Assembly (NCBI GenBank): GCA_903827265.1
Contig: CAIKHN010000019.1
Span: forward strand, 11,814-75,813
DNA: 64,000 bases
DNA from: Candidatus Uhrbacteria bacterium
Lineage (GTDB): Bacteria > Patescibacteriota > Patescibacteriia > UBA9934
Direction of reading: 5' to 3'
Within the stretch, counting starts at the first letter, position 1. Each line of letters begins with the position of its first letter. The position numbers and the translations under genes were made by a program. The notes under the pieces were generated by a model. It ran no database searches and had not been told where the DNA came from. It was given only the letters and a program-made list of their open reading frames with translations. Positions 35,019-52,201 of the stretch are shown one piece after another.

Positions 35019-35066
35019 CTTACCTTAATACCCTCCCCCTTTCAAAGGGGGAGTCGGAGGGGGTTG
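35019..35066. repeat. GC-rich palindromic repeat element, copy 1 (intergenic)
   Basis: CTCCCCCTTT-CAAA-GGGGGAG hairpin, flanked by GGAGGGGGTTGGAGCC. Its reverse complement aligns at about 85-90 percent identity with two elements inside valS. Confidence 0.7.
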
Positions 35067-35329
35067 GAGCCACAGGAATCTGACCCGATTCTTTGAAAAG
35101 GTCGTGACGGAATCGGAAACTGATCAGCCGAGTGGGAGATCCTCATTTTTGGAGGGCGCATGTCGTTTTTTCGACGTTTAAAACTTCGCATTACGTTGCG
35201 ATCTGAACCGAAAATTGACGAATCGTGATTTCGAATTCGAAAAATGCACCATCGCCAATCGCGCAAATCACTAAAATCGAACACCCCTACTCCCGGCTTT
35301 CGGCTTTCCCCTCATAACCATTCCAAGAA

Positions 35330-36673
35330 TCAGACCTGATCCGTCTCCCCCATTCTCATCATCATCGCCGATACAAACGCGATGAGTGCAAGACCAGACC
35401 ATGACGACCAGAGATAGTGATCAAAGAAACAAATCATGAGTATAACGTTTCCCATGCCAAATGCGTACAACGCATCGCGATGCGGGAATCGAGAAACGTT
35501 CGTCCATACAACATTCACCGCCCAACACAATGCCGCCACAAGACCAAGAAGCCCGAGCTCAGCAAGAATCAATAAAAATACATTGTGTACCGGTTGGTAA
35601 TCGAATGCATTCTTGCCGGGCTGAGTGTCAGAAAATGACAACACATACGAACCGAGTCCGCGGCCAACAAGAGGATTCGTTGCCGCCATAAATGGAACAA
35701 AATCCTCATACAATGCAACGCGCTCAATAAGAGAGCGTTCCTCGTTTACGCCACCACCGCGAATGCTCGATGCAAGATCGGTAAGATAAAATGACGCAAA
35801 AAGCGAACCAAACACGGCAATCATTCCGAGTATTGCCGCAACTGGACGAGCAATCTTCATGGAAGGAATCGACTTCACAACAAAGACCAACGTGAGCCCT
35901 ACAAACAACCCGAGGAATGCTGATCGCGATCCGGTAAGGAGCATCCCGAACATAAGAATAATCGTACCAATGCTTGTGAAGATGACGTGCTTCCGTTTTG
36001 TCCATTCACGTCGGACACTTGCCATTACGCCCCACCATGCGAAGAGCGCAACGCCAAGAAAACCACCAAAAACGTTTGGATGCGGGAAAGTTCCATACGC
36101 CCGAAGCACCCGTTCGCCATTCACCGTAAACACAGCGTCGCCGAGTTGCGCGGCATCACGAAATGCAAGACCAAACCACGAACTCGCAGGTGATGACCCT
36201 CCAAATACTTGAATAACACTCAGCGCCAGCGGAGCAAGTAGTGAAAGGACAAATGCGTAAAGTACGTGTCTCACGCTGACGCGATCAAGAAGAAGCGCAA
36301 AAAACACCATGAAAGCAAACAGGATATGCGCCGTCATTGCGAGTGAAAATACCGATCGATCCGCGAACGCCGTCCCGAGAACCGCAACAACGCAAACAAT
36401 TGCGCCCAATCGAACCGCAAGCTGATGCTTCTGCTGAATCGTAAACCATTTTCGGTCGAGAAGACTTCCGCCGATGACCGCGACCGCAAGAAGAACTTCC
36501 ACCGCGTACAGACTCATTACGCCAAACTCCGTGTGCGTTCCCGCAATCTGCGCCTCGCTATACATCCATCGCGTTTGCCAAGGCAGGAGAAAGATCACTA
36601 CCGAGAGAAACAGTGTCGTCCAATTGGGAAAGAAGCGATTCATACGCCTGAAGGATTTCGTGACGACGATCAT
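35330..36673 (-). CDS. O-antigen ligase / Wzy_C-domain polytopic membrane protein
   Basis: At least 10 predicted TM helices. Large loop with GTFPHPN and GSRSA motifs characteristic of the WaaL/O-antigen-polymerase family. Confidence 0.65.
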   Translation of the reverse strand: MIVVTKSFRRMNRFFPNWTTLFLSVVIFLLPWQTRWMYSEAQIAGTHTEFGVMSLYAVEVLLAVAVIGGSLLDRKWFTIQQKHQLAVRLGAIVCVVAVLGTAFADRSVFSLAMTAHILFAFMVFFALLLDRVSVRHVLYAFVLSLLAPLALSVIQVFGGSSPASSWFGLAFRDAAQLGDAVFTVNGERVLRAYGTFPHPNVFGGFLGVALFAWWGVMASVRREWTKRKHVIFTSIGTIILMFGMLLTGSRSAFLGLFVGLTLVFVVKSIPSMKIARPVAAILGMIAVFGSLFASFYLTDLASSIRGGGVNEERSLIERVALYEDFVPFMAATNPLVGRGLGSYVLSFSDTQPGKNAFDYQPVHNVFLLILAELGLLGLVAALCWAVNVVWTNVSRFPHRDALYAFGMGNVILMICFFDHYLWSSWSGLALIAFVSAMMMRMGETDQV

Positions 36674-37511
36674 TATGATGAAATTTTAACATGCTATCCG
36701 TTACAACAACTCGAGTATCCGCATTCATCATTGTTCGAAGATTTAGCGGGAATCGCGCACGCTGCATGCGTTCAGCAATGCGCTCGATGCCACGAACATT
36801 CGGCAGTACACACACTCCCTCAACGCGATACGCCTGTGCGCGAAGCACGCTACGTGCATGCGGAAGCGTAGGGCGCATCCATCCGTTTGCTGCACGAAGT
36901 TTTGAAAGAATGTCGCTACGATCGAGTATCGGCGAGAGTGTTGCGAGCCAAAATAGAAAGTATGGATCGTCTGAACCAATTTTTACCGCCGATAAATCTA
37001 ACCGGTCATCTGCAACAAAAAAGCTTAAGCACATTGGGTCTTTTGCGCGTTCACCTGGGCGCGCATGCATGAGCGCAAGCGCCCCGGCGAGAAGCAACCG
37101 CGTCGACCAAATTCCGCCGCGAGATGTCACGATAAACACATCAATATCGCTCTCTGCATTCGTAAAAGAAAATGCGAGCGAATTACACACCGCGATCATC
37201 TTCACCCACGGAAGCCATGATGCTATCCGTACAAACCATTGTGCACGTCGAGACTTTCGCAGCGCGTCCCCCACTCGAGTAATGCGTTCCGTTCGCCACA
37301 CACAAGTATTGCCAAGAGCAAAAAATCCCTGATCCTGAACGCATCCGTGTTTCTGAAGCCACAAAGACGACGTTAACACGCCATCAATATCCACGAGCGT
37401 TGCTCCCGGAAGATCGCACCATTTCCACACCTCAAGCGCCGTCAGCGGGAACTGAAAAAATGCAAAATACGCCAATACCCGAAACGCCGACTGTTCGATT
37501 GGCGTCGGCAT
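36558..37511 (-). CDS. Hypothetical protein with a possible nucleotidyltransferase-fold motif (SFTNAESDIDVFIVT)
   Basis: ORF. A G-S...D-I-D-like motif. Overlaps the 5' end of the downstream ligase-like gene ORF as drawn. Confidence 0.4.
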   Translation of the reverse strand: MPTPIEQSAFRVLAYFAFFQFPLTALEVWKWCDLPGATLVDIDGVLTSSLWLQKHGCVQDQGFFALGNTCVWRTERITRVGDALRKSRRAQWFVRIASWLPWVKMIAVCNSLAFSFTNAESDIDVFIVTSRGGIWSTRLLLAGALALMHARPGERAKDPMCLSFFVADDRLDLSAVKIGSDDPYFLFWLATLSPILDRSDILSKLRAANGWMRPTLPHARSVLRAQAYRVEGVCVLPNVRGIERIAERMQRARFPLNLRTMMNADTRVVVTDSMLKFHHNDRRHEILQAYESLLSQLDDTVSLGSDLSPALANAMDV

Positions 37512-37514
37512 ACA

Positions 37515-38528
37515 TTACCGTATTTTCTTGAGTACCCATCCGGATCCTGTACGAATCATGTGGAATACTCCAAAGAGAATAAACACGGCATCGCGCAAAC
37601 GGATCATCAGTGCAAATGCTAGTGCGTCCATTGGAACGCCGAGCGCTGCAAAAACCGCAGTAAATCCGCCCTCAAAGATTCCAAGACCGCCAGGAACCGG
37701 AAGAATCAGCGCGAGCCCCGGAAGCGAGCTTGCAAGAAATGCTTGAGCAAAGTTGAGCGTTACGCCAAAACCCCACGCAATATAAAGCGTCTCCACGACA
37801 CGAAACGCTACCATCGCCATGGAAAGCGCCGAGATCCCAAGAACCACGAGCCCTCCGCCAGCAAAAAAACCACGCATTAAGTCCTCTGTCTCCTCGAGCC
37901 AGTGTTCGACGCCACGGAAACGCTTCACGCGATCAAGTCGCAAACGGTGAAATAACGGTTTTGCCATTGGCTTCCCTCGGCCAAGTGCCGTGAAAAATGC
38001 GAGCAACAAACTAAACGCAATCGCCAAACCCACGGCCATAACCCACAACGTTCCAGCTCCGCCCTGATGCTCGACCAGCGCAAAAATCACGCCAAGCGCA
38101 ATAAAGACTACGTACGAACACAGTTCAAACGCAATATCGAGGGTTGCCGATGCAACAGCGCTCTTTCCTGGAACGCCGTCGGCCATTAACAGCGCAACAC
38201 GAACAGGCTCGCCGCCAGCTTGATTGAGAGGCGTCAGGTAGCCAACGGCGTATCCCGTCATGCGGTGCCAGTACATGCGCCAAATAGAAAGCCTGTGCTT
38301 CTTCTCCGTCACCTGACGATGAAGAATAATCGTCCACCGTAAGCTGTAGAGCGTGAAGTTCAGCATTGAGATGCCAACAAGACCAACAAATGGCCACGCG
38401 CCAAACGTGCTCATGTTTTGCAGGACGTTTGCCCAACCTTCTTTTGCAAGAAGTGTGTACAAGAGCCCAACGCCAAGGAAACCACTCGCAAGAATCCCGA
38501 GAAGACGCCACGGAACACGTTTGGCCAT
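37515..38528 (-). CDS. Flippase-like / lysyl-PG-synthase-TM-family (UPF0104-type) integral membrane protein
   Basis: About 8 predicted TM helices. The overall pattern resembles PF03706-type proteins. The motif evidence is weak. Confidence 0.45.
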   Translation of the reverse strand: MAKRVPWRLLGILASGFLGVGLLYTLLAKEGWANVLQNMSTFGAWPFVGLVGISMLNFTLYSLRWTIILHRQVTEKKHRLSIWRMYWHRMTGYAVGYLTPLNQAGGEPVRVALLMADGVPGKSAVASATLDIAFELCSYVVFIALGVIFALVEHQGGAGTLWVMAVGLAIAFSLLLAFFTALGRGKPMAKPLFHRLRLDRVKRFRGVEHWLEETEDLMRGFFAGGGLVVLGISALSMAMVAFRVVETLYIAWGFGVTLNFAQAFLASSLPGLALILPVPGGLGIFEGGFTAVFAALGVPMDALAFALMIRLRDAVFILFGVFHMIRTGSGWVLKKIR

Positions 38529-38545
38529 AATGCTGGCATTGTACC

Positions 38546-39277
38546 TTACTCAAGCGAACTCTTCTTTGGACTCAAGAATAGGGCGTACATTGCGTAGGTA
38601 AACGCGGTGCTCACAAAAATATAGAGCGTAACGCCGCCAACGAGCGTAGTGACACCAAGCACAAGCATCATGACTGGAAGCAAATACACCATCATCTTGT
38701 TCATGGTTGCTGTCATGTCTTCATCGAGTGCAGGACTTGAACCGCGAACCGCAGCAGGTGGACGACGAGTAATCATTTGCTTTGCCTGGAAGTACTGACA
38801 CACCGCGGAAAGCACCGCGAGTGGAATAGAAACTTTTCCGAGATCGATTCCCAAAAAGATTGGCGACATCGTCCCAGGATTCGATACAAAGCCGTAGAGA
38901 ATCGTCGGATCGATCGTGTGAATACCAGCAGCAAGCGCACGATACAGCGCAATGAAGACGAAGAGCTGCACGATTGTCGGCAAGCATGATGCAAATGGAT
39001 TCACGTTGTGTACTTTGTATACACTCATGAGTTCCTTTGCCATGGTTTCTTTGTCGTCCTTGTATTTCTCCTTAATCTCTGCAATTTTCGGCTGAATATC
39101 TTGAAGCTCCTTCTGCGCCTTCATCGACTTGTATGTGAGTGGCAACACGGCGCCCTTCACAAGAATCGTCATGGCGATAATCGAAAGACCAAGTCCGCCC
39201 CACGGAGCGATGTCGTAAATGAATACGAGCAAGTTATAGAGCGGCTGATACAGAATAGTGAAGAAGAAAGAAGCCAT
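38546..39277 (-). CDS. yidC: Membrane protein insertase YidC/Oxa1 (short form)
   Basis: LLVFIYDI...GLSIIAMTILVKGAVLPLTYKSMKAQKELQDIQPKIAEIKEKYKDD...NPFASCLPTIVQLFVFIALY. Confidence 0.85.
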   Translation of the reverse strand: MASFFFTILYQPLYNLLVFIYDIAPWGGLGLSIIAMTILVKGAVLPLTYKSMKAQKELQDIQPKIAEIKEKYKDDKETMAKELMSVYKVHNVNPFASCLPTIVQLFVFIALYRALAAGIHTIDPTILYGFVSNPGTMSPIFLGIDLGKVSIPLAVLSAVCQYFQAKQMITRRPPAAVRGSSPALDEDMTATMNKMMVYLLPVMMLVLGVTTLVGGVTLYIFVSTAFTYAMYALFLSPKKSSLE

Positions 39278-39279
39278 AG

Positions 39280-40506
39280 TTATTCAGCAACAACTGAAGA
39301 CTCGACTGAATCGTCAGCAGGAACTTCAACCGGAGCAACAGCGCCGTCTGCCTGACGTTCCTGAATATTCACTTTCCATCCGGTCAACTTTGCCGCCAGG
39401 CGCACGTTCTGGCCGCCTCGGCCAATCGCGAGCGACAACTGATCGCTTGGAACCACAACGATTGCTGCGTGCTCTGTTTCATCCAGGTTCACCTCGAGAA
39501 CCTTTGCTGGAGAAAGCGAGTGCGTAATAAGCTCTCGAGCATTTTCGCTCCACTGAATAATGTCGATCTTCTCACCAGAAAGTTCGCTGGTAATGGTCTG
39601 AATACGGCTTCCACGCTGACCAATACATGCACCGATTGGATCGATTCCTGCATCAGTTGATGCGACGGCAATTTTTGTACGAGCACCTGCCTCACGAGCA
39701 ATCGCCTTAATAACCACCGTGCCTTCCGCAACTTCTGGGATTTCAACCATGAACAACTTTCGAACAAGCTCTTCGCTCGTTCGAGAAAGCAAAATCTGCG
39801 CACCGCGAGCACCAAGCGACACTTCGCGAACATAAAATTTCAATCGATCGCCCGAACGATATCGCTCTGTTGGCATCGCATCTTCCGGTTTGATGATTCC
39901 TGCAGTACGCCCAATATCGACAAGAATAATGCGACCTTCACGACGCTGAACTGTTCCAACGATCACATCACCTTCAACGCCTTTAAACTCATTGAAGATA
40001 ATTTCACGCTCTGCTTCACGAAGCTTTTGCGTAATAACCTGTTTTGCAGTCATTGCCGCCATTCGACCAAACTCCACAGCCTGCGGAAGCTCTGTACGCA
40101 ACACATCTCCAACCTTCGCGCCCATTTTCATGAGCTGCGCATCAGAAATCATGATGTCGGTCTTTGGATTGAATTTTGGTGCAATTTCGTCCACCGGCGC
40201 TTCCGTTGGTGGCATAAAGTCTCCCAAAGCCTTCATTGCTTCGCGACGAGCCGATTCCTCTGCCTCAATCTTCTTCACCTCTTCCATTTCCTCTGGAGTA
40301 ATGTCCGCAACCACCGTTTTCACATCGAAAATTCTGGCCAAGCCAGTTTCTGTATCAAACTTCGCCTCAAGATTGTGATACTTGTCGCCAAAATCCTTGC
40401 GGTACGCCGCCGCCAATGCAGATTCGATCGTTGCCATGACACTTTCGTAACTCAAGCCTTTCTCGTCACAAATCTGACGCATCGCTAACTCGATTGCACT
40501 TGCCAT
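39280..40506 (-). CDS. nusA: Transcription termination/antitermination factor NusA
   Basis: N-terminal domain, S1 region and two KH domains (GACIGQRGSRIQTITSELSGEKIDIIQW). Confidence 0.9.
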   Translation of the reverse strand: MASAIELAMRQICDEKGLSYESVMATIESALAAAYRKDFGDKYHNLEAKFDTETGLARIFDVKTVVADITPEEMEEVKKIEAEESARREAMKALGDFMPPTEAPVDEIAPKFNPKTDIMISDAQLMKMGAKVGDVLRTELPQAVEFGRMAAMTAKQVITQKLREAEREIIFNEFKGVEGDVIVGTVQRREGRIILVDIGRTAGIIKPEDAMPTERYRSGDRLKFYVREVSLGARGAQILLSRTSEELVRKLFMVEIPEVAEGTVVIKAIAREAGARTKIAVASTDAGIDPIGACIGQRGSRIQTITSELSGEKIDIIQWSENARELITHSLSPAKVLEVNLDETEHAAIVVVPSDQLSLAIGRGGQNVRLAAKLTGWKVNIQERQADGAVAPVEVPADDSVESSVVAE

Positions 40507-40647
40507 AAAAGATTGTTCTTCAATTGTTTAAGATGAAAACCTGGCATTTCGGCCAGGTTTCAACATGGAAAAAGGATACCACAGCCCGATCGACTACGCA
40601 ATATTTGTCGCGATTTTATGCGGAAGGATTTCTTCGAACCGGGCTAC

Positions 40648-40682
40648 CAACCCTAAGCGTTGACCAACCCTTAGGATTGAAC
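40648..40682. repeat. 35-bp hairpin-forming repeat, copy A
   Basis: CAACCCTAAGCGTTGACCAACCCTTAGGATTGAAC. Stem AACCCTAAG/CTTAGGGTT with a 12-nt loop containing TTGACC. Confidence 0.75.
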
Positions 40683-40701
40683 AATCAAACGTCGCTTGTC
40701 T

Positions 40702-41643
40702 CTAACTTTGAAGCCTTTGTATTCCTCGCTGTACCCTCGATTCAATATCAATCTGCTCTAAACTCTGTGCAATGAAATCAAAACGACTTAAAGGATTCGA
40801 AGAATAGACTTCGGCAACGATTTGAAAATATTCCTGCATTTCTGATTTTTGTTTCTCCTTCTCATCTACACCAGGAAATGTGTTGATGCACGCAAGGACT
40901 TCTTGCACAGTCGATGTTTGACCAACATCTTTCATCCCAAGAAAAACCCACAATTGAGAAAGCGCCATCATGAATCGTTGCTTCGATTCCTCAACACGCA
41001 GAGCAACCATCTTTTGGAGTACTTCTGACGTTGCAATAGCACCGTCCGTCTTTCGCAACGCTATCGTCCACACCCGATCAGCTTTCACCGTACGATTATG
41101 GTTCGATTCGATTCGTGAAAAAAGTATTTCCAAATCATGAAGATCGAACAATGTATCAAGATACCCGGGATATGCATTGTCATCTCGGGTTGCCGGAATA
41201 TCTGGAAAATGCAAAATAACAATCGCTCCGGGTTTTAATTTTTGTTCGATTGAAGCGCCGTACGCCCTACGCTGCGCCACAGGAATATAACTCGATGTCC
41301 CATAATCAATATACCCATCAAGCGAACCGCCTGGCACAGATGCAACGACGTCCTCAATGGGTTGCTGTTGGACATCGATATTCCCCCTCCCTTCACCGAT
41401 TCGCGCTTTCAACGCTGCGGCAATAGTTGAGTCATTCTCAACGGCGGTCACGGAATATCCTTTTTTTGCACAATATATTGTATTTCGCCCTAATCCTGCG
41501 CCAGCGTCGATAATTTTTCCTGTCGTAATTCCTTGCGCACGCAAAAAATCCGCCATCAGCTCAACGTAATCTGATTGCCTTTCGCTTGCCTGTTCAAGAG
41601 TAAGTTCAGCTTCTGCAACCCATTCCGGAAAGTACTTTTCCAT
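40702..41643 (-). CDS. SAM-dependent methyltransferase-domain protein with a C-terminal extension of unknown function
   Basis: Motif I IDAGAGLGRNTIY. Bracketed on both sides by the 35-bp repeat. Confidence 0.6.
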   Translation of the reverse strand: MEKYFPEWVAEAELTLEQASERQSDYVELMADFLRAQGITTGKIIDAGAGLGRNTIYCAKKGYSVTAVENDSTIAAALKARIGEGRGNIDVQQQPIEDVVASVPGGSLDGYIDYGTSSYIPVAQRRAYGASIEQKLKPGAIVILHFPDIPATRDDNAYPGYLDTLFDLHDLEILFSRIESNHNRTVKADRVWTIALRKTDGAIATSEVLQKMVALRVEESKQRFMMALSQLWVFLGMKDVGQTSTVQEVLACINTFPGVDEKEKQKSEMQEYFQIVAEVYSSNPLSRFDFIAQSLEQIDIESRVQRGIQRLQS

Positions 41644-41670
41644 ATGCCAGTATTCTACCGCAATTCATTT

Positions 41671-41705
41671 CAACCCTAAGCGTTGACCAACCCTTAGGGT
41701 TGAAC
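41671..41705. repeat. 35-bp hairpin-forming repeat, copy B (34/35 identical to copy A)
   Basis: CAACCCTAAGCGTTGACCAACCCTTAGGGTTGAAC. Perfect 12-bp stem here. Confidence 0.75.
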
Positions 41706-42055
41706 TACCCCACCCCAATAATGTGCGTGATTCGGGGCGGAATCTGATCGTATTCAATCGCGATCACGTCGATGCGCCATTCGGAGTGAGGATGGCTCGA
41801 CATGAAGTGCTCGGCGACAATGGCGATTTTACGGAGCTTGGATTTCGTGACGGATTCTTCGGGGTAGCCGAATTCGTGATCGTTGCGCGCTTTTACCTCG
41901 ACCATCACAAACTCATCGCCATCTTTTGCAATAATGTCGATTTCGCCAAAGCGATTTCGATATTGAGTCTCAAGAATCGTCATCTTTTTGGATTTCAAAA
42001 ACGCAGCGGCATCGGCCTCCGCTGCATTTCCAAATATCCTCCTCTTATCGACCAT
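41705..42055 (-). CDS. yraN: YraN/UPF0102 family endonuclease
   Basis: 116 aa, with GEIDIIAKDGDEFVMVEVKAR...IDVIAIEY, typical of UPF0102. Confidence 0.7.
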   Translation of the reverse strand: MVDKRRIFGNAAEADAAAFLKSKKMTILETQYRNRFGEIDIIAKDGDEFVMVEVKARNDHEFGYPEESVTKSKLRKIAIVAEHFMSSHPHSEWRIDVIAIEYDQIPPRITHIIGVG

Positions 42056-42060
42056 AGCAA

Positions 42061-42537
42061 TTATCGAGCACGCTTCGGCAAGTACTTATTTACATCTGCT
42101 CGGGACTGTTCGCGGTGCTGCAACGCCGGAACTTCCTTCTTCACGTAGCGAACGATTGATACCGCGCCAGCAATAACCGCAACTGCCCAAATCAAGAACC
42201 AGAAACGAGAGCCAAAGAACTGAATTTCTTCAAACGTGAGGAAGAACCACGCCAATCCCACAACACCAGCAGCTGAACACAACGACGCGATCTTCTTCAG
42301 CGTGATAATTTGGTATCGGTCGTATTTTCCGTTGCGAATCACCATGCGAATCACTGATCCTGCGATAATCGCAAGCGCAAAGAATCCAAAGAATCCTGCC
42401 TCAAACGCTGCAGACATGCGCGTTGGAGTAAGATCGAACCAAAAACTCAAATTCCACAATGGAGAAAGAAAATTCATATGGGCAGGATGGTACGGTGTTT
42501 TTGGGCTGTTGGTCAATGAGAATAGACTCTTCCCCAA
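42061..42537 (-). CDS. Hypothetical membrane protein (3-4 TM)
   Basis: Hydrophobic segments only. Confidence 0.45.
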   Translation of the reverse strand: MGKSLFSLTNSPKTPYHPAHMNFLSPLWNLSFWFDLTPTRMSAAFEAGFFGFFALAIIAGSVIRMVIRNGKYDRYQIITLKKIASLCSAAGVVGLAWFFLTFEEIQFFGSRFWFLIWAVAVIAGAVSIVRYVKKEVPALQHREQSRADVNKYLPKRAR

Positions 42538-43058
42538 TGATCACGGCTTGCGCGAAACTGTCCGCATTCTCGGCACCCACCTTCAGCAAAGAGTCGGCCA
42601 GCCGCATACGGCGCAACACGATTCGCAACTTCTGGCGCAAGAACATGACGTGAATGTGGCTCCCAGTCTACGACAATAATCTGACCATTCGGAGCGAGCA
42701 ACCGACGAGCCTCGGAAACGATCGATGCACGACGACGAGCCGACCACAGCGTGTTAATAAGAAAAATGCGATCAAGCGTTCCTTGCTCGATGTCGGCGAC
42801 TCCTCCAAGTCGTTCGATGTCTCCACGAACCGGATAAAGATTCAACAGCGAATGCAGCGATCGATGTCCTCGCAACATCGATAGCGCATCCGGATGAATA
42901 TCCACCGCGAACACAACACCGTCATCTGCAAGGATTCGCGCTGCCGGCAAAACAAGATGTCCAGTGCCTCCAGCACCAAAATCCGCCACACGATGCCCGG
43001 GGCGAAGGTTCGCGATCTCAAGGATCACACGTGCATCAAGAAGCGCAGAGCCGGCCAT
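42513..43058 (-). CDS. Class I SAM-dependent methyltransferase
   Basis: Motif I VADFGAGGTGHLV and a downstream acidic motif (VFAVDI). Confidence 0.55.
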   Translation of the reverse strand: MAGSALLDARVILEIANLRPGHRVADFGAGGTGHLVLPAARILADDGVVFAVDIHPDALSMLRGHRSLHSLLNLYPVRGDIERLGGVADIEQGTLDRIFLINTLWSARRRASIVSEARRLLAPNGQIIVVDWEPHSRHVLAPEVANRVAPYAAGRLFAEGGCRECGQFRASRDHWGRVYSH

Positions 43059-43061
43059 GGT

Positions 43062-43301
43062 TTAGAAAAGAGAGCGGATAAAGCTCCCAATAATAATGTC
43101 GAACAAATCAAGCGTCACGATAAACCCAAGAATCACGATTGCTGTTCCGAGCAACTTATAAAAGAATGCCGTCGTGCCCAAATGCTGCTCCGCCCACATG
43201 ACCGGGCCAAGCATGTCCTCAAACCACCGCGTTTTCCATACCATCATCCATCCCATCGCGGTAATGAATAGGCCAATCAGAATTCGCTGCAACATATGCA
43301 C
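43062..43301 (-). CDS. Small membrane protein (79 aa, 2 TM)
   Basis: Hydrophobic ORF. Confidence 0.4.
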   Translation of the reverse strand: MHMLQRILIGLFITAMGWMMVWKTRWFEDMLGPVMWAEQHLGTTAFFYKLLGTAIVILGFIVTLDLFDIIIGSFIRSLF

Positions 43302-43316
43302 TATTTTATCACAAAC

Positions 43317-43345
43317 AAAAACGAAGCCCGGTCAGGCTTCGTTTT
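43317..43345 (-). terminator. Intrinsic terminator for tRNA-Leu (bidirectional A-tract/T-tract hairpin)
   Basis: AAAACGAAGCC-cggtca-GGCTTCGTTTTT. Confidence 0.7.
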
Positions 43346-43348
43346 TGA

Positions 43349-43434: not shown

Positions 43435-43522
43435 AGGTACACCACAGGAACGGGCAGAATCATAACCTCAAGATTGAAAAGATTCAAGCCTTCAGGTACC
43501 ATTCCCCAGCGATACCCCATTT

Positions 43523-44357: not shown

Positions 44358-44359
44358 TT

Positions 44360-44815
44360 ATGTCCACTTCCCGCTGGTATCCATTCACGATTCTTGGCGT
44401 GAGCATCGTCGGATTTTTCGACGCTGCGTACTTAACTATCCAACATTACACTCAGTTCACCCTTCCCTGCAGCATTACCCACGGATGTGATTTAGTAACG
44501 AAAAGCGAGTACTCGCAAATCATGGGCGTTCCCGTCGCCCTTCTTGGCGCGCTCTACTACCTCGCAATCTTCCTCGTCGTGTACATCATCATCGAGACGA
44601 AAAAAACGGACTATCTCCGTTTCATCGCCATCACCACAACCGCCGGATTCCTCTTCTCCGCTTGGTTCGTCTACCTCCAACTCTTCGTCATCCACGCCAT
44701 CTGCCAATACTGCATGTTCTCCGCATTCACCTCAACTACAATGTTTGCCGCGTCGATTGTGTATTTTTCAAAGGAGCATCTTCGGAACGTTAAAATTTCC
44801 TTCCCTTCCCCGTAA
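44360..44815 (+). CDS. Vitamin K epoxide reductase (VKOR)-family membrane protein, probable DsbA re-oxidant
   Basis: 4-TM protein with a loop Cys pair (LPCSITHGC) and a CQYC motif. Begins 3 nt after the dsbA-like stop. Confidence 0.7.
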   Translation: MSTSRWYPFTILGVSIVGFFDAAYLTIQHYTQFTLPCSITHGCDLVTKSEYSQIMGVPVALLGALYYLAIFLVVYIIIETKKTDYLRFIAITTTAGFLFSAWFVYLQLFVIHAICQYCMFSAFTSTTMFAASIVYFSKEHLRNVKISFPSP

Positions 44816-45524
44816 CCAATCGAAGCGCTTTCGGAATCACACGGAACGAAAAATCTTTGCCTTGAAGCTGATCACCGTCTACTGTGGCGGTGATTTGCTT
44901 TTCGCAGGAAACGAACATTTCTTCAAAAGGGATACAGCCGATGTCGGCTTTACCTTTGAATAATGAAAACTTTGGAAGACGGATAATCAATGATAGACGG
45001 CCGTCGACCGGACTGATCATGCCAGCGTCATCTGGTGCGGCGAAGTTTCGGACTTCGATCGAGGCTTTGCGGAGCGGCGTGACGACGTATTGCTTGCCGT
45101 GATGGATCGAAAAGTCTGTTCCCTCGATGTGAACCGATTGCACGAATCGCTTCCCGTTCACCTCGCCAACGTCGAGCTCCTCGACATTTCGCGCGCTCAG
45201 CACGTCGCATGCCGCAACGCCGCTTGGCATACCCAAAAGCTCTGCCATTCCTCCTTGTGGGCCAACAGGAAGTAAAGCGACGACGGTCTTTCGATCTTGT
45301 ACAGCGTCGATGACCCGTCGTAACGTCATGTCATTCCCGACGGCGACCACCGTGGTAACTCCCCCACGAATTTCGTCGCGAATGAGTTCGATGGGTTCGC
45401 GAAACAAAGCCAAGCGAGCAATCTTGCCGGCAATACCCAAGTCCGTTACGCGCGTTTCAATTTGAGCGAGTTCTCGTTCAAATCGTCGGTCTTGCAGCGC
45501 TTCATCGTACACGTAGCAATACAC
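44790..45524 (-). CDS. Diacylglycerol-kinase-catalytic-domain (YegS/BmrU-like) lipid kinase homolog. Degenerate GGDGT (VGNDMT)
   Basis: VVAVGNDMTLRRV...LLPVGPQGG pattern. Confidence 0.45.
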   Translation of the reverse strand: MYCYVYDEALQDRRFERELAQIETRVTDLGIAGKIARLALFREPIELIRDEIRGGVTTVVAVGNDMTLRRVIDAVQDRKTVVALLPVGPQGGMAELLGMPSGVAACDVLSARNVEELDVGEVNGKRFVQSVHIEGTDFSIHHGKQYVVTPLRKASIEVRNFAAPDDAGMISPVDGRLSLIIRLPKFSLFKGKADIGCIPFEEMFVSCEKQITATVDGDQLQGKDFSFRVIPKALRLVTGKGRKF

Positions 45525-45526
45525 AA

Positions 45527-45901
45527 CTATTCTTCAAGAGCGACTTCAGCACGTTTCTTTCCCTTTGGCGCTTCTGCGCCCATACTGATATTTCCGTTAA
45601 CCTGCGCGCCAGGACCGATTGCCAATATTTCTGTTACCACGTCGCCCGTTATTTTTGATGATGGAAAAAGCTCAAACTTTCCGTGAACAATAATGTTGCC
45701 TCGAATTTCGCCGCTGACCACCGCATTACTTGCCTCAATGTTCGCTTCAACAATTGCCTGATCGCCAATACGTAAATCACCCTTCGTCTTCACCGTTCCA
45801 TGCACCTCGCCTTCAATAACGATATCGCCCTCAGCGTGCAAATCACCTTCCAATCGTACTCCGTGCGCAATGATTGTTTCTGGACCAGTTCCCTTTGCCA
45901 T
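45527..45901 (-). CDS. Bactofilin (CcmA/DUF583) cytoskeletal protein
   Basis: Repetitive beta-helical pattern GDLHAEGDIVIEGEVHGTVKTKGDLRIGDQAIVEANIEASNAVVSGEIRGNI. Confidence 0.75.
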   Translation of the reverse strand: MAKGTGPETIIAHGVRLEGDLHAEGDIVIEGEVHGTVKTKGDLRIGDQAIVEANIEASNAVVSGEIRGNIIVHGKFELFPSSKITGDVVTEILAIGPGAQVNGNISMGAEAPKGKKRAEVALEE

Positions 45902-45935
45902 AGAAATAAAATTACTTTGTTCTTCAGTACCACGA

Positions 45936-47642
45936 TTACATCGCTTTCACAACCGGAATGTTTAATAACTCCATTGCGTTCGTGAGCGTAGAGCCAACGA
46001 CATCAGCGAGCCCCAATCGCGCCGCAGTGAGCGACGGCTGCACCTCGTCAATCATATGCACCTCGGCGTAATAACGAGAGAACATTTGCGCAAGCTCGAA
46101 TGCATATAAACACACAAGCGATGGTCGCATTTCCGTTCCGGCTTGTGCAACGATATCTGGATATTCCGCAACCTTACGCAATAACTGTACCTCTTGAGGG
46201 TCAATGAGCGCTGATGCCAACGGAAACGCCGATACTTTCGTCTTCGTGTGCAGACTGTTAATGCGAGCAATCGTGTACAAAATATACGGACCAGTAAACC
46301 CATCCGTCGCCATCGCCTCTTCCATGTCGAACACCATTAAACGTTCCGGATCATGGCGAAGCATCACAAATTTTACCGCAGCCATCACCAATGCCTTCGC
46401 GTTTGCCGCAACGACCTTTGGCTTCCATTCCGGGTGGCGCAATACCGTTGAATCTGTCACCCGCTCTTCCATGGCATCGCGCAAATCAGACCAGCGAATA
46501 ATATTGCCCTTTCGCGAGCTCATGGCGCCCTCAGGAAGCGTAACGAACTCAAAACCTAAATGAATAAGCTCACGAGAAAACTCCATGCGTTTTAACGTTG
46601 CCGCAAGTTGTTTCATGGCGAGTGACTGACGAACGTCAACAACAATCATGGAGCGATCTGCGTGATAGTCGTTTTCCTTATGCAGCGCAAGCGCAAGATC
46701 TTTTGCGTTATACAACAACGATCCATCAGACTTCCGCAACAAATTTACTCCAAGCTTCTCCGCCTCCAAATCGACAATCACCGCGCTCTGACTGACCTTC
46801 GCAATTCCCTCAACTAAAAGCTTGTTCACGATTTGGTGTGTTTCATCGATCATCTCATGCTCCAAATAGATTCGATCAAACGACAATCCAAATTCATCAA
46901 ATGTTTCTTTCAAATTATCCATCGACCATTTCTGCGTTTTCTTCCACAGCGCAAACCATTCCCCTTCACCAGACTCGAGTTCGTTTTGAATTGCGGAAAC
47001 TTCTTGTTTCGCTTCGTCGTTCCCTTCAAGCGCCGCCGTTGCTTCAGTGTAAACGCTCCCCAAAAAATTCAAGCGGCTCGCAGCTTCAGGCTCTTCGCCG
47101 TCGTGGAACTTTTTAATTCCCCACAAACATTTCGCGACGTTGCTTCCCAAATCATTAATGTATGACACTGGAATTGCGGAATATCCATTTGCCGCAAAGA
47201 TATTCACCGCCGCTGCGCCAAGCGCGAAGTTTCGCAAATGACCAACGTGTACTTCTTTATGCGTGTTTAAGTTTGCGTATTCAACAAGGACTTTTTTACC
47301 TTTTCCTGTTGTTCCGCGACCATAACGCTTCTTCGACTTTGTGACATCATCAATAACATGCGCACCAAAAGCTTCATCGTCGAAAGTGAAATTGACGTAT
47401 GGCCCCGCCGACGTGATCTTCTTAATCATCTTCGACGGACCAATTTTTGCCGCAAGTTCTGTCGCGATTTCCGCTGGGTTACGACTCATGCCTTTTGCCA
47501 ATGTAAAACACGGGAAGCTCAAATCGCCGAATCCCGGCTTTGGCGGCGTCACAATCATGTCAGCCGTGAGTGTAAATGTTTTCCCAAGCACTTTTTTCAG
47601 CGCGGTAAAAACTTCCTTTCGTGCAACACTTCGTGCGGTCAT
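45936..47642 (-). CDS. argS: Arginyl-tRNA synthetase
   Basis: HVGHLRN class I motif. 568 aa with C-terminal ...LLNIPVVKAM, typical of ArgRS. Confidence 0.9.
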   Translation of the reverse strand: MTARSVARKEVFTALKKVLGKTFTLTADMIVTPPKPGFGDLSFPCFTLAKGMSRNPAEIATELAAKIGPSKMIKKITSAGPYVNFTFDDEAFGAHVIDDVTKSKKRYGRGTTGKGKKVLVEYANLNTHKEVHVGHLRNFALGAAAVNIFAANGYSAIPVSYINDLGSNVAKCLWGIKKFHDGEEPEAASRLNFLGSVYTEATAALEGNDEAKQEVSAIQNELESGEGEWFALWKKTQKWSMDNLKETFDEFGLSFDRIYLEHEMIDETHQIVNKLLVEGIAKVSQSAVIVDLEAEKLGVNLLRKSDGSLLYNAKDLALALHKENDYHADRSMIVVDVRQSLAMKQLAATLKRMEFSRELIHLGFEFVTLPEGAMSSRKGNIIRWSDLRDAMEERVTDSTVLRHPEWKPKVVAANAKALVMAAVKFVMLRHDPERLMVFDMEEAMATDGFTGPYILYTIARINSLHTKTKVSAFPLASALIDPQEVQLLRKVAEYPDIVAQAGTEMRPSLVCLYAFELAQMFSRYYAEVHMIDEVQPSLTAARLGLADVVGSTLTNAMELLNIPVVKAM

Positions 47643-47643
47643 A

Positions 47644-49121
47644 TTATGGAAGAAGTTTCACAAAGAATCGCTTGCCTTTCTGAACAATCACCTCGTCCGT
47701 GCGAGGAGAAACGTTCAGCATCGGATCGTTAACGACTTCGGACCCGATCTTTACGCCGGCCTGTTCGATGAGACGCTTTGCCTCGCCTTTCGACGGTGCA
47801 AATTCAGCCTCGACGAGAATTTCAACAATCGTGAGTGTTCGACCGCCCAGTGAAAGTTCTGGAATAACATCCGGCATTTCTTTGTTGCTGAACACTTGTA
47901 AGAAATGCTTCTTCGCCGCTTTTGCTTTGCTCTTGTTGTGGTACATCTCAACAACGGTTTCGGCCAAATGCATCTTTGCATCACGTGGATTCATACCACC
48001 AGCAATTGCAGATTCAACGGCAGCGATTTCATCATCTTCAAGATCGGTCGCAAGTTTAAAGTATGGAGCGATCATGCTGTCGTCCATTGCCATAATTTTA
48101 CCGAACATGTCTTCTGGCGAATCTGTTAGCGCGATGACTCCCCCTTCGCTCTTACTCATCTTCTTTCCTTCACTGTTCGTAAGAAGTGAAATTGCGAGTA
48201 CAAACTTCTCTTTCTGTTTCATCTCTCGCATTAACGTTCGGCCCGCAAGCATGTTGAACGTTTGATCATTCCCACCAACCTCCAAGTCCACATCCATCGC
48301 AACGGAATCGTAGCCCTGCATGAGTGGGTACATGAATTCGTGGAGGTAAATTGGCTTCGAAGGTCTCATGTAGCGCCCGTACTTTGTGAACAAGAAACTA
48401 GGCGCCTCTTTCGGATCTTCTTCTCTCAACTTTTTAAGCGCCTCCTGGTCTTCCTTAGAGAGGAATGCTTTGCCACATTTTGGATCCCACATTTCAGTAA
48501 TACCCGTACTAACCTCCGGCACCGAAACTCCCAAGTCTGCGAGCTTCGGATTGGAGCGAATTGTCTTGTTCATTATCTTTGCGTTGGATGCGAAAACGTT
48601 TCCACAATGTGGACATTCAATCTCTCCCATAAATCTGCGATCAAACATATCCCGCTCTAACATTTGTTGAACGGTGAAATGACTCGCTAACTGCATGACA
48701 TCTCCAAAGTTCATTTTTCCAAGCCACTTGTCGTTGAACATCACCTTTGCGGCGTTGTCGCCAGAAAACTTCAGAATCTTCGACGCTTGTTTTTTGTACG
48801 TCGCTGCATTCGCGAGTACCTCTTGCTTTGTGAGCTGCTTTCGCGTCGCAAGTTTGTCCGTCGGGTCACCGATCATTGCGGTGAACGATCCGATCAACAT
48901 GATCACCTCGTGACCAAGATCTTGGAATTCACGAAGCTTTCTCAGCTGCATTGCGTGACCAATATGCAAGAACGGTGCTGTTGGATCGATACCGTTGTAC
49001 AGCCGCAATCGCTTGCCGCTCATCAAAAGTTCGCGCAACTTTTCCGTGGTTGGATACACGGTGGCGACACCACGGGTGAGCAATCGATTAATTTTGTGTT
49101 CATCGGTAATGACGTTCATAG
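47644..49121 (-). CDS. tyrS: Tyrosyl-tRNA synthetase with C-terminal S4 domain. Has an extra segment of about 90 aa between HIGH and KMSKS
   Basis: HIGHAMQ and KKMSKS motifs. S4-like C-terminus. I placed the start at the internal ATG (MNVITDEHK) just after the stop of the upstream VOC gene; the track's start at 49182 overlaps that gene. Confidence 0.8.
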
Positions 49122-49123
49122 AA

Positions 49124-49495
49124 TTACGCGTGATCTTCATCGAGAATAAGTTGGTTGCCATCTGCATCAGCAATAATGGCATTCCATCCGCCCCATATTT
49201 GTTGGATAGGTTCTACAAGAATTGTTACGCCAGCGCGACGCAACTCGTTGACTGCGGCGCGAATATCGTCAACCGCGAGCACGATTCCTGTTGGACCGCC
49301 GATGTGAACGTTCTCAAAACCTTTTGCCCGGCTAGGATTCTTTTCCTCAACGTACAGTCGCCCGCCGGGCAACGTATATTCAGTGAAGTGTGGGTTCTCT
49401 TCAACGAGCTCAAGCTTAAGAATGTCTCGATAAAAAGCTTTCGACGCTTCTACGTCTGAGACAAAGATGAGATGAGCACCGAGGGAAAACTTCAT
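49124..49495 (-). CDS. Glyoxalase/bleomycin-resistance (VOC) family protein
   Basis: 123 aa, with a beta-alpha-beta-beta-beta pattern (AHLIFVSDVEASKAFY...VHIGGPTGIVLAVDDI). Confidence 0.6.
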   Translation of the reverse strand: MKFSLGAHLIFVSDVEASKAFYRDILKLELVEENPHFTEYTLPGGRLYVEEKNPSRAKGFENVHIGGPTGIVLAVDDIRAAVNELRRAGVTILVEPIQQIWGGWNAIIADADGNQLILDEDHA

Positions 49496-49504
49496 ATATC
49501 GGCA

Positions 49505-52201
49505 TTATGACACAAGTGCTGCGTGCTCTTTTTGGAGCGCAGCAAGTTTTTCTTGAAGATCGGCGAGCTTCTGACGTTCCCCGGCAATGACCTTCTCCGG
49601 CGCACGAGCTACAAAATCCGTATTCGCAAGTTTTGATTCTTGGGCTGCGATGAATTTTGTCGCTTCGGCGATCTCGGATTCGATTCGGATCTTTTCCGAA
49701 GCAGCGTCGACGGCTGGCAATTGTACGAAGATCTGCGCTGCGCCAACCACAATCGGCGTAATCGACTCCGGTCGCTCCATGCTTGATCGGACAATCTTCA
49801 CTTTCGTGAGGCCGCCGATAACCGACTCCATTTCCGCCAAAGCACCAGCATTGACGATCGTAATCGACTCAACATCCTTCGGTAACGTCTTATGTTCCGA
49901 GAGATAATTACGAATCGCAATTACCGCCGAGCACACCTGATCGAATGCCGCTCGATCCTCCGACGACAATTCGTGCTCAACCGTTGGCCACTTTGCAACA
50001 ATAATCATTCCGGAGTCGAAGTTCTTATAGATTTCCTCGGTAACGAATGGTGCAAATGGGTGCCAAAGGATAAGCAAACGTTCGAGAATGTAGAGAAGAA
50101 TATCGCTCTTCTCGCCTTCGATTTTGGCGATTTCGAGGTACCAGTCCGCGAAGTCGTTCCACGTAAAGTCACGCAACACTTCGATGGCGAGCGAGAAGTC
50201 GTAACGATCGATGAGTAAACTAACCTTCTTTGCTGTCTCACTAAACCGCGCAAGGATCCATTTGTCGGCAAGCGTCTTCGGCTCCACCTCCCCCCGACCC
50301 CCTCCTTCGTAAGGAGGGGGAGTCTTCGCGGAAAGAATAAATCGCGAGATATTCCACAGCTTGTTCACAAGGTTACGCGATGCTTCAACTTTCTCAATGT
50401 AATATCGCGAATCGTTTCCTGGAGTGTTTCCGGAAAGCAACGAAACGCGCAATGCATCGCAACCGTATTCTTCGATAACTTCAATAGGATCAATTCCATT
50501 ACCAGAAGACTTTGAGAACTTCTTTCCGTCCTTATCACGAAGAATACCGTGAATGTATGCGTCCTTAAATGGAATCTGGTTCAGCGCATACGTGCTCATG
50601 AGAATCATGCGCATCAACCACAAATACAAAATTTCATATCCCATCTGAATCCAGTTCGTTGGATGAAACTGTTCAAGATCGGAAGGCTTGCCGTCCGTAG
50701 CCTTGGCGAAGGACGGCCAACCGAGCGTCGAGAATGTCCACGATCCGCTCGAGAACCACGTATCGAGCGTGTCTTCATCTTGAACCCAGCCTTCGCCTTC
50801 TGGTTTTGCGCCGACAAAGATCTCCACCCCCTCCAACTCCCCCTCGGAAAGGGGGAGAGATTTAGTCTTCCGATACCACGCAGGAATACGATGACCCCAC
50901 CAGAGCTGGCGCGAAAGGCACCAGTCGCGGAGATTTTCGATGCGATCGAGATAGAGTTTCGTGAATCGATCTGGCGTAATCGAAACTTTTTGTTCGGATT
51001 TCCCATCGAGTCCAGTGGTAACCGCCTCACGCATCAAATCACGCAGCGTTTTGCCGCGACCAGGAATTTCTTTGTTCACGTTCAACCACCACTGCGTCAT
51101 CGGAATTGCCTCAATAACGTCGCCATACCGATCAGATGTACCAACGTTCTGAATAACCTTTTCTTCTTTTTCGAGAAGTCCTTGTTCCTTCAGCCACGAA
51201 ACAACTCTTTCGCGCGCAGCCTCAATGGTCATGCCGGCGACAGATCCTGCGTCGGCGGTCATCTTCCCGTCTGCGCCGATCACTTGCTTGATTTCGATAG
51301 GATCATTTTTCGCCTTCTGCACTTCGTACATTCCGAAATCGATCGCACTGTGTGCCGGAGTAACGCCGAGCGCGCCGGTTCCAAATGACGGATCAACTGC
51401 ATCGCTCGCGATCACTTTGATTGAAAGCTTTGCGCTGGCGAATTCAACATCGTATGTTTTTCCAACGAATGTTTTGTATCGATCATCAGTTGGATGCACT
51501 GCAACAGCCGTATCGCCAACCTTTGTTTCTGGACGTGTCGTGGAAATCGTGATCGGAAAATCTTTGCTGTATTTAAACGTGTACAGCATCGACTCGCGTT
51601 CGATAGTTTCGATCTCGTCATCAGAACACGTGGACTGGCCTTTCACCGACCAATTCACCACGCGGAAACCACGATAGATGAGTCCATCGTTGTACATGCG
51701 TGTGAAAAGTTCGTTCACCGCAGCGCTCCGTTTGTCGTCGAACGTGTATGCCAAACGGCTCCAGTCTGCACTGGTTCCTAATTTCTTTACCTGTGTAAGA
51801 ATCGTCGATTTTGAGCTTTCAGCAAACTCGCGAATTTTCTCAAGCAACCCTTCGCGGCCAAGCTCTTGCCGGGGATTCTTCATTCCACCAGCCATGAGAT
51901 TTTTCTCAACACGAGCCTGTGTGGCGATTGCGGCGTGGTCGGTTCCCGGCACAAGAAGCACCTTCTTTCCCAATAAACGCTGATAGCGAACCATCGCGTC
52001 CATGAGGGAGTTTTCAAGCGCATGGCCAAGGTGAAGCACGCCCGTCACGTTTGGCGGAGGCATCACCACAGTGAACGCTTCGGTGGAATCAGTAATGTTT
52101 GGCAAACCCTCTGGCGCAAAATAGCCTGAGCTTAGCCAAGATTCATAAATTCCATCCTCCACGAGCTTCGCCTCGTACGCCTTTGCCATTTCGTTTGCCA
52201 T
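49505..52201 (-). CDS. valS: Valyl-tRNA synthetase
   Basis: MANEMAKAYEAKLVEDGIYESW...PPPNVTGVLHLGHA class I motif. The anticodon-binding region (FTWNDFADWYLE) and the coiled-coil C-terminus are present. ATG verified at 52201. The first 374 aa of the track's ORF (to 53323) are antisense read-through of the GC-rich cassette. Confidence 0.9.
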   Translation of the reverse strand: MANEMAKAYEAKLVEDGIYESWLSSGYFAPEGLPNITDSTEAFTVVMPPPNVTGVLHLGHALENSLMDAMVRYQRLLGKKVLLVPGTDHAAIATQARVEKNLMAGGMKNPRQELGREGLLEKIREFAESSKSTILTQVKKLGTSADWSRLAYTFDDKRSAAVNELFTRMYNDGLIYRGFRVVNWSVKGQSTCSDDEIETIERESMLYTFKYSKDFPITISTTRPETKVGDTAVAVHPTDDRYKTFVGKTYDVEFASAKLSIKVIASDAVDPSFGTGALGVTPAHSAIDFGMYEVQKAKNDPIEIKQVIGADGKMTADAGSVAGMTIEAARERVVSWLKEQGLLEKEEKVIQNVGTSDRYGDVIEAIPMTQWWLNVNKEIPGRGKTLRDLMREAVTTGLDGKSEQKVSITPDRFTKLYLDRIENLRDWCLSRQLWWGHRIPAWYRKTKSLPLSEGELEGVEIFVGAKPEGEGWVQDEDTLDTWFSSGSWTFSTLGWPSFAKATDGKPSDLEQFHPTNWIQMGYEILYLWLMRMILMSTYALNQIPFKDAYIHGILRDKDGKKFSKSSGNGIDPIEVIEEYGCDALRVSLLSGNTPGNDSRYYIEKVEASRNLVNKLWNISRFILSAKTPPPYEGGGRGEVEPKTLADKWILARFSETAKKVSLLIDRYDFSLAIEVLRDFTWNDFADWYLEIAKIEGEKSDILLYILERLLILWHPFAPFVTEEIYKNFDSGMIIVAKWPTVEHELSSEDRAAFDQVCSAVIAIRNYLSEHKTLPKDVESITIVNAGALAEMESVIGGLTKVKIVRSSMERPESITPIVVGAAQIFVQLPAVDAASEKIRIESEIAEATKFIAAQESKLANTDFVARAPEKVIAGERQKLADLQEKLAALQKEHAALVS
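50279..50330. repeat. GC-rich palindromic repeat element, copy 3 (inside valS, in frame; encodes ...KTPPPYEGGGRGEVEP...)
   Basis: GGCTCCACCTCCCCCCGACCCCCTCCTT-CGTA-AGGAGGGGGAGTCTTC. Shares the GGCTCCA start and the CCCCCT...GGGGGAG hairpin with copies 1 and 2. Confidence 0.65.
50811..50870. repeat. GC-rich palindromic repeat element, copy 2 (inside valS, in frame; encodes ...KSLPLSEGELEGVEI...)
   Basis: TCTCCACCCCCTCCAACTCCCCCTCGGAAAGGGGGAGAG. About 88 percent identical over about 42 bp to the reverse complement of copy 1. Confidence 0.7.

Follow-up and report, generated by a model that had tools for sequence, protein, structure and literature searches.

Can a short repeat be written in-frame into an essential gene, and if so, what kind of repeat is it and how did it arrive? 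A 64-kb stretch of DNA from a Candidatus Uhrbacteria bacterium (GCA_903827265.1, contig CAIKHN010000019.1, positions 11,814 to 75,813; hereafter the window) raises this question, for it holds three similar G/C-rich segments, one in the spacer upstream of groES and two inside valS, the gene for valyl-tRNA synthetase (ValRS). An initial annotation had taken them for a family of palindromic elements, mobile or recombining in this lineage, and had likened their behavior to that of the Rickettsia palindromic elements (RPEs). We examined these 64 kb of the source genome, which protein searches assign to Patescibacteria, near Uhrbacteria, and saw its relatives as 8-kb pieces. At a probability of roughly 0.72, we read the three loci as copies of a dispersed G/C-rich repeat that bears an intrastrand-triplex motif and is non-coding by origin, and for its spread we prefer templated copying.

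A hairpin with a mirror tail

Copy A (35019-35071, G-rich strand on +) is intergenic and lies 33-85 nt upstream of the start codon of groES (Cpn10; 34702-34986, - strand); its triplex-motif core (35033-35063) reads CTCCCCC, TTTCAAA, GGGGGAG, TCG and GAGGGGG and is followed by TTGGAGCC, and since the G-rich strand is on +, the groES-sense strand bears the C-rich version. Copy C (50827-50870, - strand) lies inside valS, with a core (50827-50857) of CTCCCCC-TTTCCGA-GGGGGAG-TTG-GAGGGGG whose last purine block continues into the ancestral GGG GTG GAG ATC codons. Copy B (50287-50326, - strand), also inside valS, is a register-shifted sub-type, with a core (50287/8-50320) of CCCCCTCC-TTACGAA-GGAGGGGG-TCG-GGGGGAGG. 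On the + strand the three read ...ACCCTCCCCCTTTCAAAGGGGGAGTCGGAGGGGGTTGGAGCC... (A), GGCTCCACCTCCCCCCGACCCCCTCCTTCGTAAGGAGGGGGAGTCTTC (B) and GATCTCCACCCCCTCCAACTCCCCCTCGGAAAGGGGGAGAGATTTAG (C). The reverse complement of copy A is 85% identical to copy C over 41 nt, where about 88% had been given earlier; A and B are 74% identical, and B and C 78%. Two further details also needed correction: copy C does not start with GGCTCCA, the sequence there beginning GATCTCCAC, and copy B does not have the CCCCCT/AGGGGGAG hairpin ascribed to it, its actual arms being CCCCCTCC/GGAGGGGG.

We found that these loci stand well apart from the rest of the window. The pattern CCCCCT-N(2-10)-AGGGGGAG occurs only at 35033-35053 and 50837-50857 (copies A and C) and in none of 100 shuffles; C5-N-G5 hairpins occur only at the three loci, against 0.08 expected; and a scan of the 64 kb for perfect C/T-arm hairpins returned the same three loci only, as did an ITxF-like three-block scan (0-1 matches per shuffled window), which counted 7 (A), 7 (C) and 8 (B) perfect triads and gave TCG (A), TTG (C) and TCG (B) as the second loop. 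The three loci are thus where the initial annotation had placed them, with about zero expected by chance, and this excess, together with the copies found elsewhere, bears out its claim of a genuine repeat family. As RNA the hairpins do fold (ViennaRNA, hairpin models only), with weak z-scores against shuffles (-0.1 to -1.4) because composition alone already yields stable folds. Searching Rfam with the window at the gathering threshold, and with eight loci by E-value, returned tRNAs and noise only and no matching family, and literature searches with the DNA core and with the encoded peptides returned no matching papers.

The description of the element as a palindrome holds for the hairpin; what it had overlooked is a mirror-repeat tail (GGGGGAG-TYG-GAGGGGG) carried by all three copies. 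On the G-rich strand, a pyrimidine arm (CTCCCCCT or CCCCCTCC) is followed by a loop of 5-7 nt, the purine arm complementary to it, a 3-nt loop and the mirror of the purine arm, so all three window copies have the three-block layout of the intrastrand triplex class. Single-stranded DNA with this layout is predicted to be able to fold back twice, giving a hairpin plus a third strand, and the duplex form would be a homopurine/homopyrimidine mirror repeat. We tabulated every C/T-arm (CT/GA) hairpin in ~1 Mb of fetched loci (n=260), and a G-rich tail stood 3' of the purine arm in all 260 (which on the other strand is a C-rich tail 5' of the pyrimidine arm). The tail goes with its stem: CTCCCCCT is paired with CCCCCTC, CCTCCCCT with CCCCTCC, CCCCTCCT with CCTCCCC and CCCCCTCC with CCTCCCCC. 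It mirrors its own stem at at least 7 of 8 positions in 79% of cases, vs. 22% when tails are swapped between stems, and for stems outside the search-pattern selection the mirror match is 69% vs. 34% swapped. The second loop is 3 nt long in 199 of 206 cases, and the flanks are conserved too (5', A-CCCCCTCC-RA; 3', AG).

Additions to valS and turnover among close relatives

The genuine valS gene (49505-52201, - strand) encodes an 898-aa ValRS that matches the Thermus thermophilus enzyme 1GAX (E = 5e-160), and its closest relatives, 86-89% identical, are 873-875 aa long and lack both of the extra peptides. These peptides, SLPLSEGELEGVEI (ValRS aa 448-461) and KTPPPYEGGGRGEVEP (aa 626-641), are encoded in the frames given for them earlier. 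At site C, most of 44 ValRS relatives have AWYR-GEE-(I/L)VVG where the window has AWYR-KTKSLPLSEGELE-GVEIFVG, and at site B the relatives have SRFIFT-NANGARHIESVEPK-TLADKW where the window has SRFILS-AKTPPPYEGGGRGEVEPK-TLADKW; throughout the 44, the segments of the window are lacking or different ones stand in their place. The alignment that the initial annotation had proposed as a check thus bears it out in describing both segments as lineage-specific, in-frame additions in ValRS regions that vary.

Aligning the DNA of valS to that of two close relatives, L121 (GCA_964425965) and L122 (GCA_943359525), showed that the additions differ in kind. Copy C is a clean in-frame insertion of 39 nt, or 13 codons (~50831-50870), coding KTKSLPLSEGELE, and is missing from L121, L122 and L130. 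Copy B, which had likewise been called an insertion, is a 36-nt patch (50288-50323) coding TPPPYEGGGRGE that stands in place of 21 ancestral nt. The edges move accordingly: the neighboring GTGGAGCC(R)AAGACG of copy B is ancestral valS, so that the 'GGCTCCAC' formerly counted as part of the element is GTGGAGCC, which codes V-E-P in element-free relatives too, and the GATCTCC assigned to copy C is pre-existing target sequence. A third valS indel, of 21 nt (50693-50713, - strand; coding SFAKATD), also separates the window from L121/L122. Of the relatives, only the more distant L128 has it too, and it contains an inverted repeat of its own, GCCGTCC...GGACGGC.

Both valS sites map by alignment to variable linkers of 1GAX, and an AlphaFold2 (AF2) model shows residues 448-458 and 629-635 as coil, at a pLDDT below 50, between conserved secondary-structure elements. 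Because all length changes in the coding region are multiples of three and bring no stop codon, we infer that the inserts are translated, most likely as tolerated loop decorations; translational bypassing was set aside on the same two grounds. Other lineages carry different inserts in the same two ValRS loops, after AWYR in P0012, P0015, P0020, P0025-P0027, P0036 and P0040, and at site B in P0009, P0011 and P0031; inserts such as DSVIPAQAGIQ and NVIASEAKQS presumably resemble translations of other hairpin repeat families. The two loops would appear, then, to be recurrent landing or tolerance sites.

We obtained the spacer between Wzy_C and groES of the relatives via their GroEL homologues and aligned it. 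The hairpin of copy A is also present in the closest relative, L123, there without the 5' C-rich tail; it is 100% conserved between the two in a spacer that is otherwise ~78% identical, and it is absent from L124, L126 and L127. Upstream of groES, L123 bears a second, full copy 60 nt beyond the first; at that place the window retains the ancestral 13 nt that it has in common with L126. L123 also has a B-type copy in ksgA, where 39 nt stand in place of 33 nt and overwrite the helix after the GxGxG motif; by manual count, this copy agrees with window copy B at 35 of 37 positions. L130 carries a copy in the opposite orientation at valS site B (42 nt in place of 15 nt), L126 a copy within Wzy_C, and L128, whose ValRS is 79% identical, a copy C with one stem mismatch and a nested 36-nt insert, and no copy was found in 45 kb of L121 and L122. 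The near-identical strain L132 (99.95% over 23.8 kb, 11 SNPs), which comes from a different sample, has both valS copies. In its copy B (L132:13004-13045), one of these 11 SNPs hits the mirror purine block and changes GGGGGGAGG to GGGGGGTGG (E to V), where chance would give ~0.02 SNPs. The groES spacer of L124 (3115-3700; GCA_943359525) has a larger composite, in which two long inverted segments made up of these C5/G5 blocks flank ~400 nt.

Indels of at least 9 nt between the window and L121/L123 (~83% DNA identity) are few, and a large share of them is element-related, while the groES spacer, valS, ksgA and Wzy_C all differ in element content among relatives and are in this sense hypervariable loci. 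These copies at other sites in close relatives mean that the element has been gained and lost on short time scales, and we conclude that copies are being gained, lost and decaying between close relatives of this Patescibacteria clade. The identity of valS to L121 falls from 0.97 to 0.80 along the gene, a mosaic indicating that homologous recombination between lineages has also moved sequence here.

Upstream of its true start, the valS reading frame stays open for 374 codons (52202-53323, - strand), and gene finders call the whole as a 1272-aa open reading frame (ORF; P0001), that is, ValRS plus a read-through extension. The extension lacks ValRS homology and may, from its composition, be an antisense read-through of genes on the + strand. 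A 63-nt repeat at ~52609-52669 and ~53298-53359 was picked up by Megablast. The tyrS gene (- strand; ORF 47644-49182) has an in-frame insertion of ~282 nt (94 aa) at 48359-48640 that its closest relatives (403 aa) are without; it shows a zinc-ribbon-like pattern (CPHC...PKCG) and is not a palindromic element.

Breadth, junctions and rival explanations

The element had been attributed to this lineage, an attribution that did not survive a scan of one genome per GTDB species for the pattern CTCCRACTCCCCCT-N(3-7)-AGGGGGAG. The core occurs at at least 120 loci in many phyla, where fewer than one would be expected (own arithmetic, equal base frequencies), and the four bases upstream of the pattern, which it did not impose, are CCCC nearly everywhere among the matches listed. 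The hosts among these matches include Paludibacteraceae and other Bacteroidales, Gallionellaceae, Gemmatales, Isosphaeraceae, Nitrospirae/Nitrospirota and one cyanobacterium; Gracilibacteria, Uhrbacteria, Andersenbacteria and other Patescibacteria; and the isolates Kolteria novifilia, Aquisphaera insulae, Butyricimonas synergistica, Dyella mobilis and Marinomonas aquiplantarum. The window has three copies in 64 kb, several copy-bearing contigs per metagenome-assembled genome (MAG) are among the matches listed for Sideroxydans, Paludibacteraceae and Gemmatales, and Andersenbacteria and Sideroxydans have inverted doublets. Pfam searches identified in-frame copies in UvrA (two cases), UvrC, a UvrD/AddA-like helicase, PolA, LigA and a PD-(D/E)XK nuclease, and also in MetH, LepA, HisF, IcmF, an S41 peptidase, a DHH protein and Wzy_C. 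Intragenic copies lie in both orientations and use five of the six reading frames, of which the LPLxKGE(L/S)EGV frame is the commonest. Seven of ~19 Pfam-verified intragenic copies, from unrelated phyla (L058, L080, L009, L099, L060, L028 and L025), are in DNA replication or repair genes. In a Bacteroidales MAG (L040:4565-4773), two inverted copies lie between an acrB-like and an outer-membrane-factor gene with no stop between them, and the resulting 1655-aa fused ORF could be artefactual or a genuine fusion brought about by the repeats.

Clustering the ORFs around the 120 listed loci gave no family present in more than six of them, viral contigs scanned for the pattern gave 0 matches, and a tblastn search of the window and ~1 Mb of loci for RayT, a weak test with an E. 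coli query, gave nothing better than E = 1.5. Within the loci examined, then, no transposase gene travels with the element. Diversity-generating retroelements and retrohoming were also considered and set aside, since neither a template repeat nor a gene for a reverse transcriptase lies nearby.

Filled and unoccupied sites in close relatives make the insertion junctions readable. Written in the G-rich orientation, window copies B and C and the copy upstream of groES in L123 follow one plan, (A)AGACT, 0-6 nt, pyrimidine arm, loop, purine arm, TYG, mirror purine block, T and GGAG(ATC/CC), and the right-hand junction in every case borders on GGAG(ATC/CC) or GTGG(G)AG, which the unoccupied sites possess as well (those of valS B and C, of ksgA and of the groES spacer). 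In four of the five events that can be compared with an unoccupied site (copy B and three more), 13-33 nt of target were deleted. Terminal inverted repeats are absent from the compared junctions, as is any regular target-site duplication, copy B alone being flanked by a direct repeat, CGAAGAC; the unit is a single asymmetric hairpin plus tail, which is not the make-up of a miniature inverted-repeat transposable element (MITE), defined by terminal inverted repeats together with a target-site duplication. Replacement of target beside a GGAG-type motif suggests templated patch insertion, and because the target is replaced beside GGAG-type sequence that was there before, we favor templated copying with microhomology over cut-and-paste. 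An existing copy would serve as DNA template and be copied into a break or a stalled fork, whether through template switching or through repair mediated by microhomology, with its G-rich end seeding at GGAG-like target sequence; selection would then retain only in-frame copies in tolerant loops, and the element, having no host function, would be selfish or neutral and would destabilize its surroundings. Such copying would explain why target is usually replaced, why copies of the lineage have the extra flank AAGACT in common, and why target-site duplications and terminal inverted repeats are lacking. We entertain, as a tentative and rather doubtful extension, that the repeat is transposase-free, self-propagating DNA, whose fold-back would stall replication or provoke breaks and whose G/C-rich ends would prime microhomology-mediated copying into GGAG-like sites, at the cost of a patch of target sequence. 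If this were true, the replicating unit would be a DNA structure rather than an enzyme-recognition site, which would account for the same ~30-nt architecture from Patescibacteria to Planctomycetota and for its in-frame build-up in linkers of long housekeeping proteins, notably DNA-repair proteins.

Several points weigh against the favored reading of the three loci. The proposed insertion mechanism rests on five events whose junction alignments are ambiguous by a few bases, and copy C is a clean insertion that is also found in the more distant L128. To judge from the mosaic valS, at least some copies were moved by homologous recombination between lineages. That the inserts are translated is read from frame and length only, and the AF2 model of ValRS is mediocre (mean pLDDT 74, with further low-confidence stretches). 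In the TM_ECO repeats of proteobacteria, the single strand forms a stable triplex in vitro and none was seen in vivo, and RNA is stated not to form purine-motif triplexes (Holder et al. 2015, PMC4666352). An enzyme acting in trans could, moreover, be encoded elsewhere, since our view took in 64 kb here and 8-kb pieces of the other genomes. Such an unseen transposase is the main rival to templated patch insertion, and we consider it unlikely. It would make the element a true RPE analogue, a non-autonomous transposon of the repetitive extragenic palindrome (REP)/REPIN or MITE type, cut and pasted by a REP-associated tyrosine transposase (RAYT), an IS200-like or another enzyme, in the way that has been proposed for GTAG REPs. 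The copies are indeed dispersed, short and palindromic, some form REPIN-like inverted doublets, their presence varies among close relatives, and in-frame REPs in repair and aminoacyl-tRNA synthetase (aaRS) genes are documented (PMC3733652). This rival would nevertheless have to do without a GTAG/CGTC tag, terminal inverted repeats or a consistent target-site duplication, and it sits poorly with the deletion of target in four of five events, with the lack of a recurring gene family and of RayT matches (again, a weak test) around the copies, and with TM_ECO, which likewise has no link to a mobile-element gene (PMC4666352).

Less likely still is a module that the host selects for its function, be it a DNA or RNA structure regulating replication, transcription or translation (for instance one that controls the groES promoter, or a pause site that aids ValRS folding) or the peptide LPLxKGELEGV. 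A core that is near-identical across phyla, a peptide frame that recurs in real genes, and the full conservation of the copy A hairpin amid a diverged spacer would all fit this explanation. What does not fit is the presence or absence of the element in essential genes of relatives that are 86-89% identical, the use of both orientations and five of six frames in Pfam-verified genes, the survival of the L128 copy with its stem mismatch and nested insertion, and a near-identical strain whose SNP breaks the mirror block of copy B; in E. coli, moreover, PIT elements show no promoter or terminator activity (PMC4666352), and our promoter/terminator scan of the groES spacer came back empty. The loop of copy A (TTGAAA) as a -35 box of groES, 17 nt upstream of TAAGCT, was dropped when that scan gave no qualifying site. 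Coincidence, in which G/C-rich low complexity happens to resemble itself and the valS segments are ancestral variable sequence, had been named in the initial annotation as the outcome that would overturn it. The one circumstance in its favor is that both valS sites lie where ValRS sequences vary in length; with about zero matches in shuffles, 44 ValRS relatives that lack the segments or have different ones, at least 120 unrelated loci that have this 30-nt core in common, with flanks that the pattern did not impose, and the 35 of 37 positions at which copy B agrees with the ksgA copy of L123, we regard its probability as negligible.

Relation to known repeats

BoxC/PIT (potential intrastrand triplex) repeats reportedly go back to earlier work by Bachellier and by Hoyne and Maher. 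As TM_ECO, with the consensus CCCTCNCCC-N3-6-GGGNGAGGG-N3-GGGNGAGGG, they number 3610 copies in 262 proteobacterial genomes; in E. coli they are intergenic only and sometimes form inverted pairs, they have no link to transposons, phages or plasmids, and their loci vary to an unusual degree from strain to strain (Holder et al. 2015, NAR 43:10126, PMC4666352). The likeness to our element is extensive: three blocks in a row, in which a C-rich arm and its G-rich complement enclose a loop of 3-7 nt and a second loop, of 3 nt, leads to the mirrored G-rich arm; a length of ~35-40 nt, high conservation, multiple copies and occasional inverted pairs; as far as the loci examined here show, no transposon, phage or plasmid link; and loci hypervariable among close relatives, with deleted or mutated copies. 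The sequences differ, however. Where TM_ECO has CCCTCNCCC/GGGNGAGGG, the copies here have CTCCCCCT/AGGGGGAG/GAGGGGG or CCCCCTCC/GGAGGGGG/GGGGGAGG, so that they fall outside the TM_ECO consensus, and their arms are 7-8 nt rather than 9 nt. TM_ECO-like arms CCCTCTCC with the tail CCTCACCC appear in some fetched loci. Here the host range takes in Patescibacteria and many phyla outside the proteobacteria, and unlike the always intergenic TM_ECO of E. coli, two of the three window copies lie in-frame within housekeeping genes, as do many elsewhere. By its layout the element is best filed in the BoxC/PIT/TM class, and by its sequence as a different family within it.

In its behavior, it resembles RPEs and intragenic REPs without being an RPE. 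With RPEs (Ogata et al. 2000, summarised in PMC3733652) it has in common a short palindromic form, in-frame residence in tolerated regions of essential genes and the lack of a known transposase, and to this extent, in-frame gains and short-time turnover, the RPE-like behavior claimed earlier holds up; membership among RPEs does not, the CGTC/GTAG tag being absent. CGTC-tagged REPs, which include RPE-4/6, have no dedicated transposase (Di Nocera et al. 2013, PMC3733652), and the three window copies, in contrast to RPE-4/6, have no CGTC or GACG at their ends, the L130 copy alone being flanked by GACGTC. The element also differs from RPEs in its mirror-repeat third block, in not being confined to one genus and in insertions that often overwrite the target. 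It is shorter than RPE-1. We set it apart from RPEs, to which no sequence relationship is shown, by description and not by direct comparison with RPE sequences.

The GTAG/CGTC-tagged REPs and the REPINs with their RAYT transposases (PMC3733652; Bertels and Rainey 2011, PMC3116915) are comparable in that they are stem-loops of 20-40 nt occurring as singletons and inverted dimers. They differ from the element in that it has no tag tetranucleotide, has strictly homopyrimidine/homopurine arms and a covarying mirror tail, and came with no RAYT in the window and ~1 Mb of loci, as far as a single E. coli RayT query, a weak test, can tell. Intragenic REPs are enriched in the genes for UvrABCD, PolA, RecBCD and tRNA synthetases (Di Nocera et al. 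2013, PMC3733652), and the apparent bias to DNA-repair genes seen here, with the genes for UvrA, UvrC, PolA and an aaRS (ValRS) among the hosts, parallels the one reported for those unrelated REPs.

To date, accounts of intrastrand-triplex repeats have treated them as oddities confined to the spacers between genes in E. coli and cyanobacteria, and in-frame palindromic insertions were already known for RPEs and tagged REPs; the valS locus connects both kinds, with a triplex-type repeat written into essential genes of very distant phyla, the genome-reduced Patescibacteria included. Its practical effects are lineage-specific indels in marker genes, inflated ORF calls, and alignments and phylogenies that may be misled, and its junction pattern, in which target is replaced beside GGAG-like sequence, offers a testable hypothesis for how a repeat may spread without a transposase.

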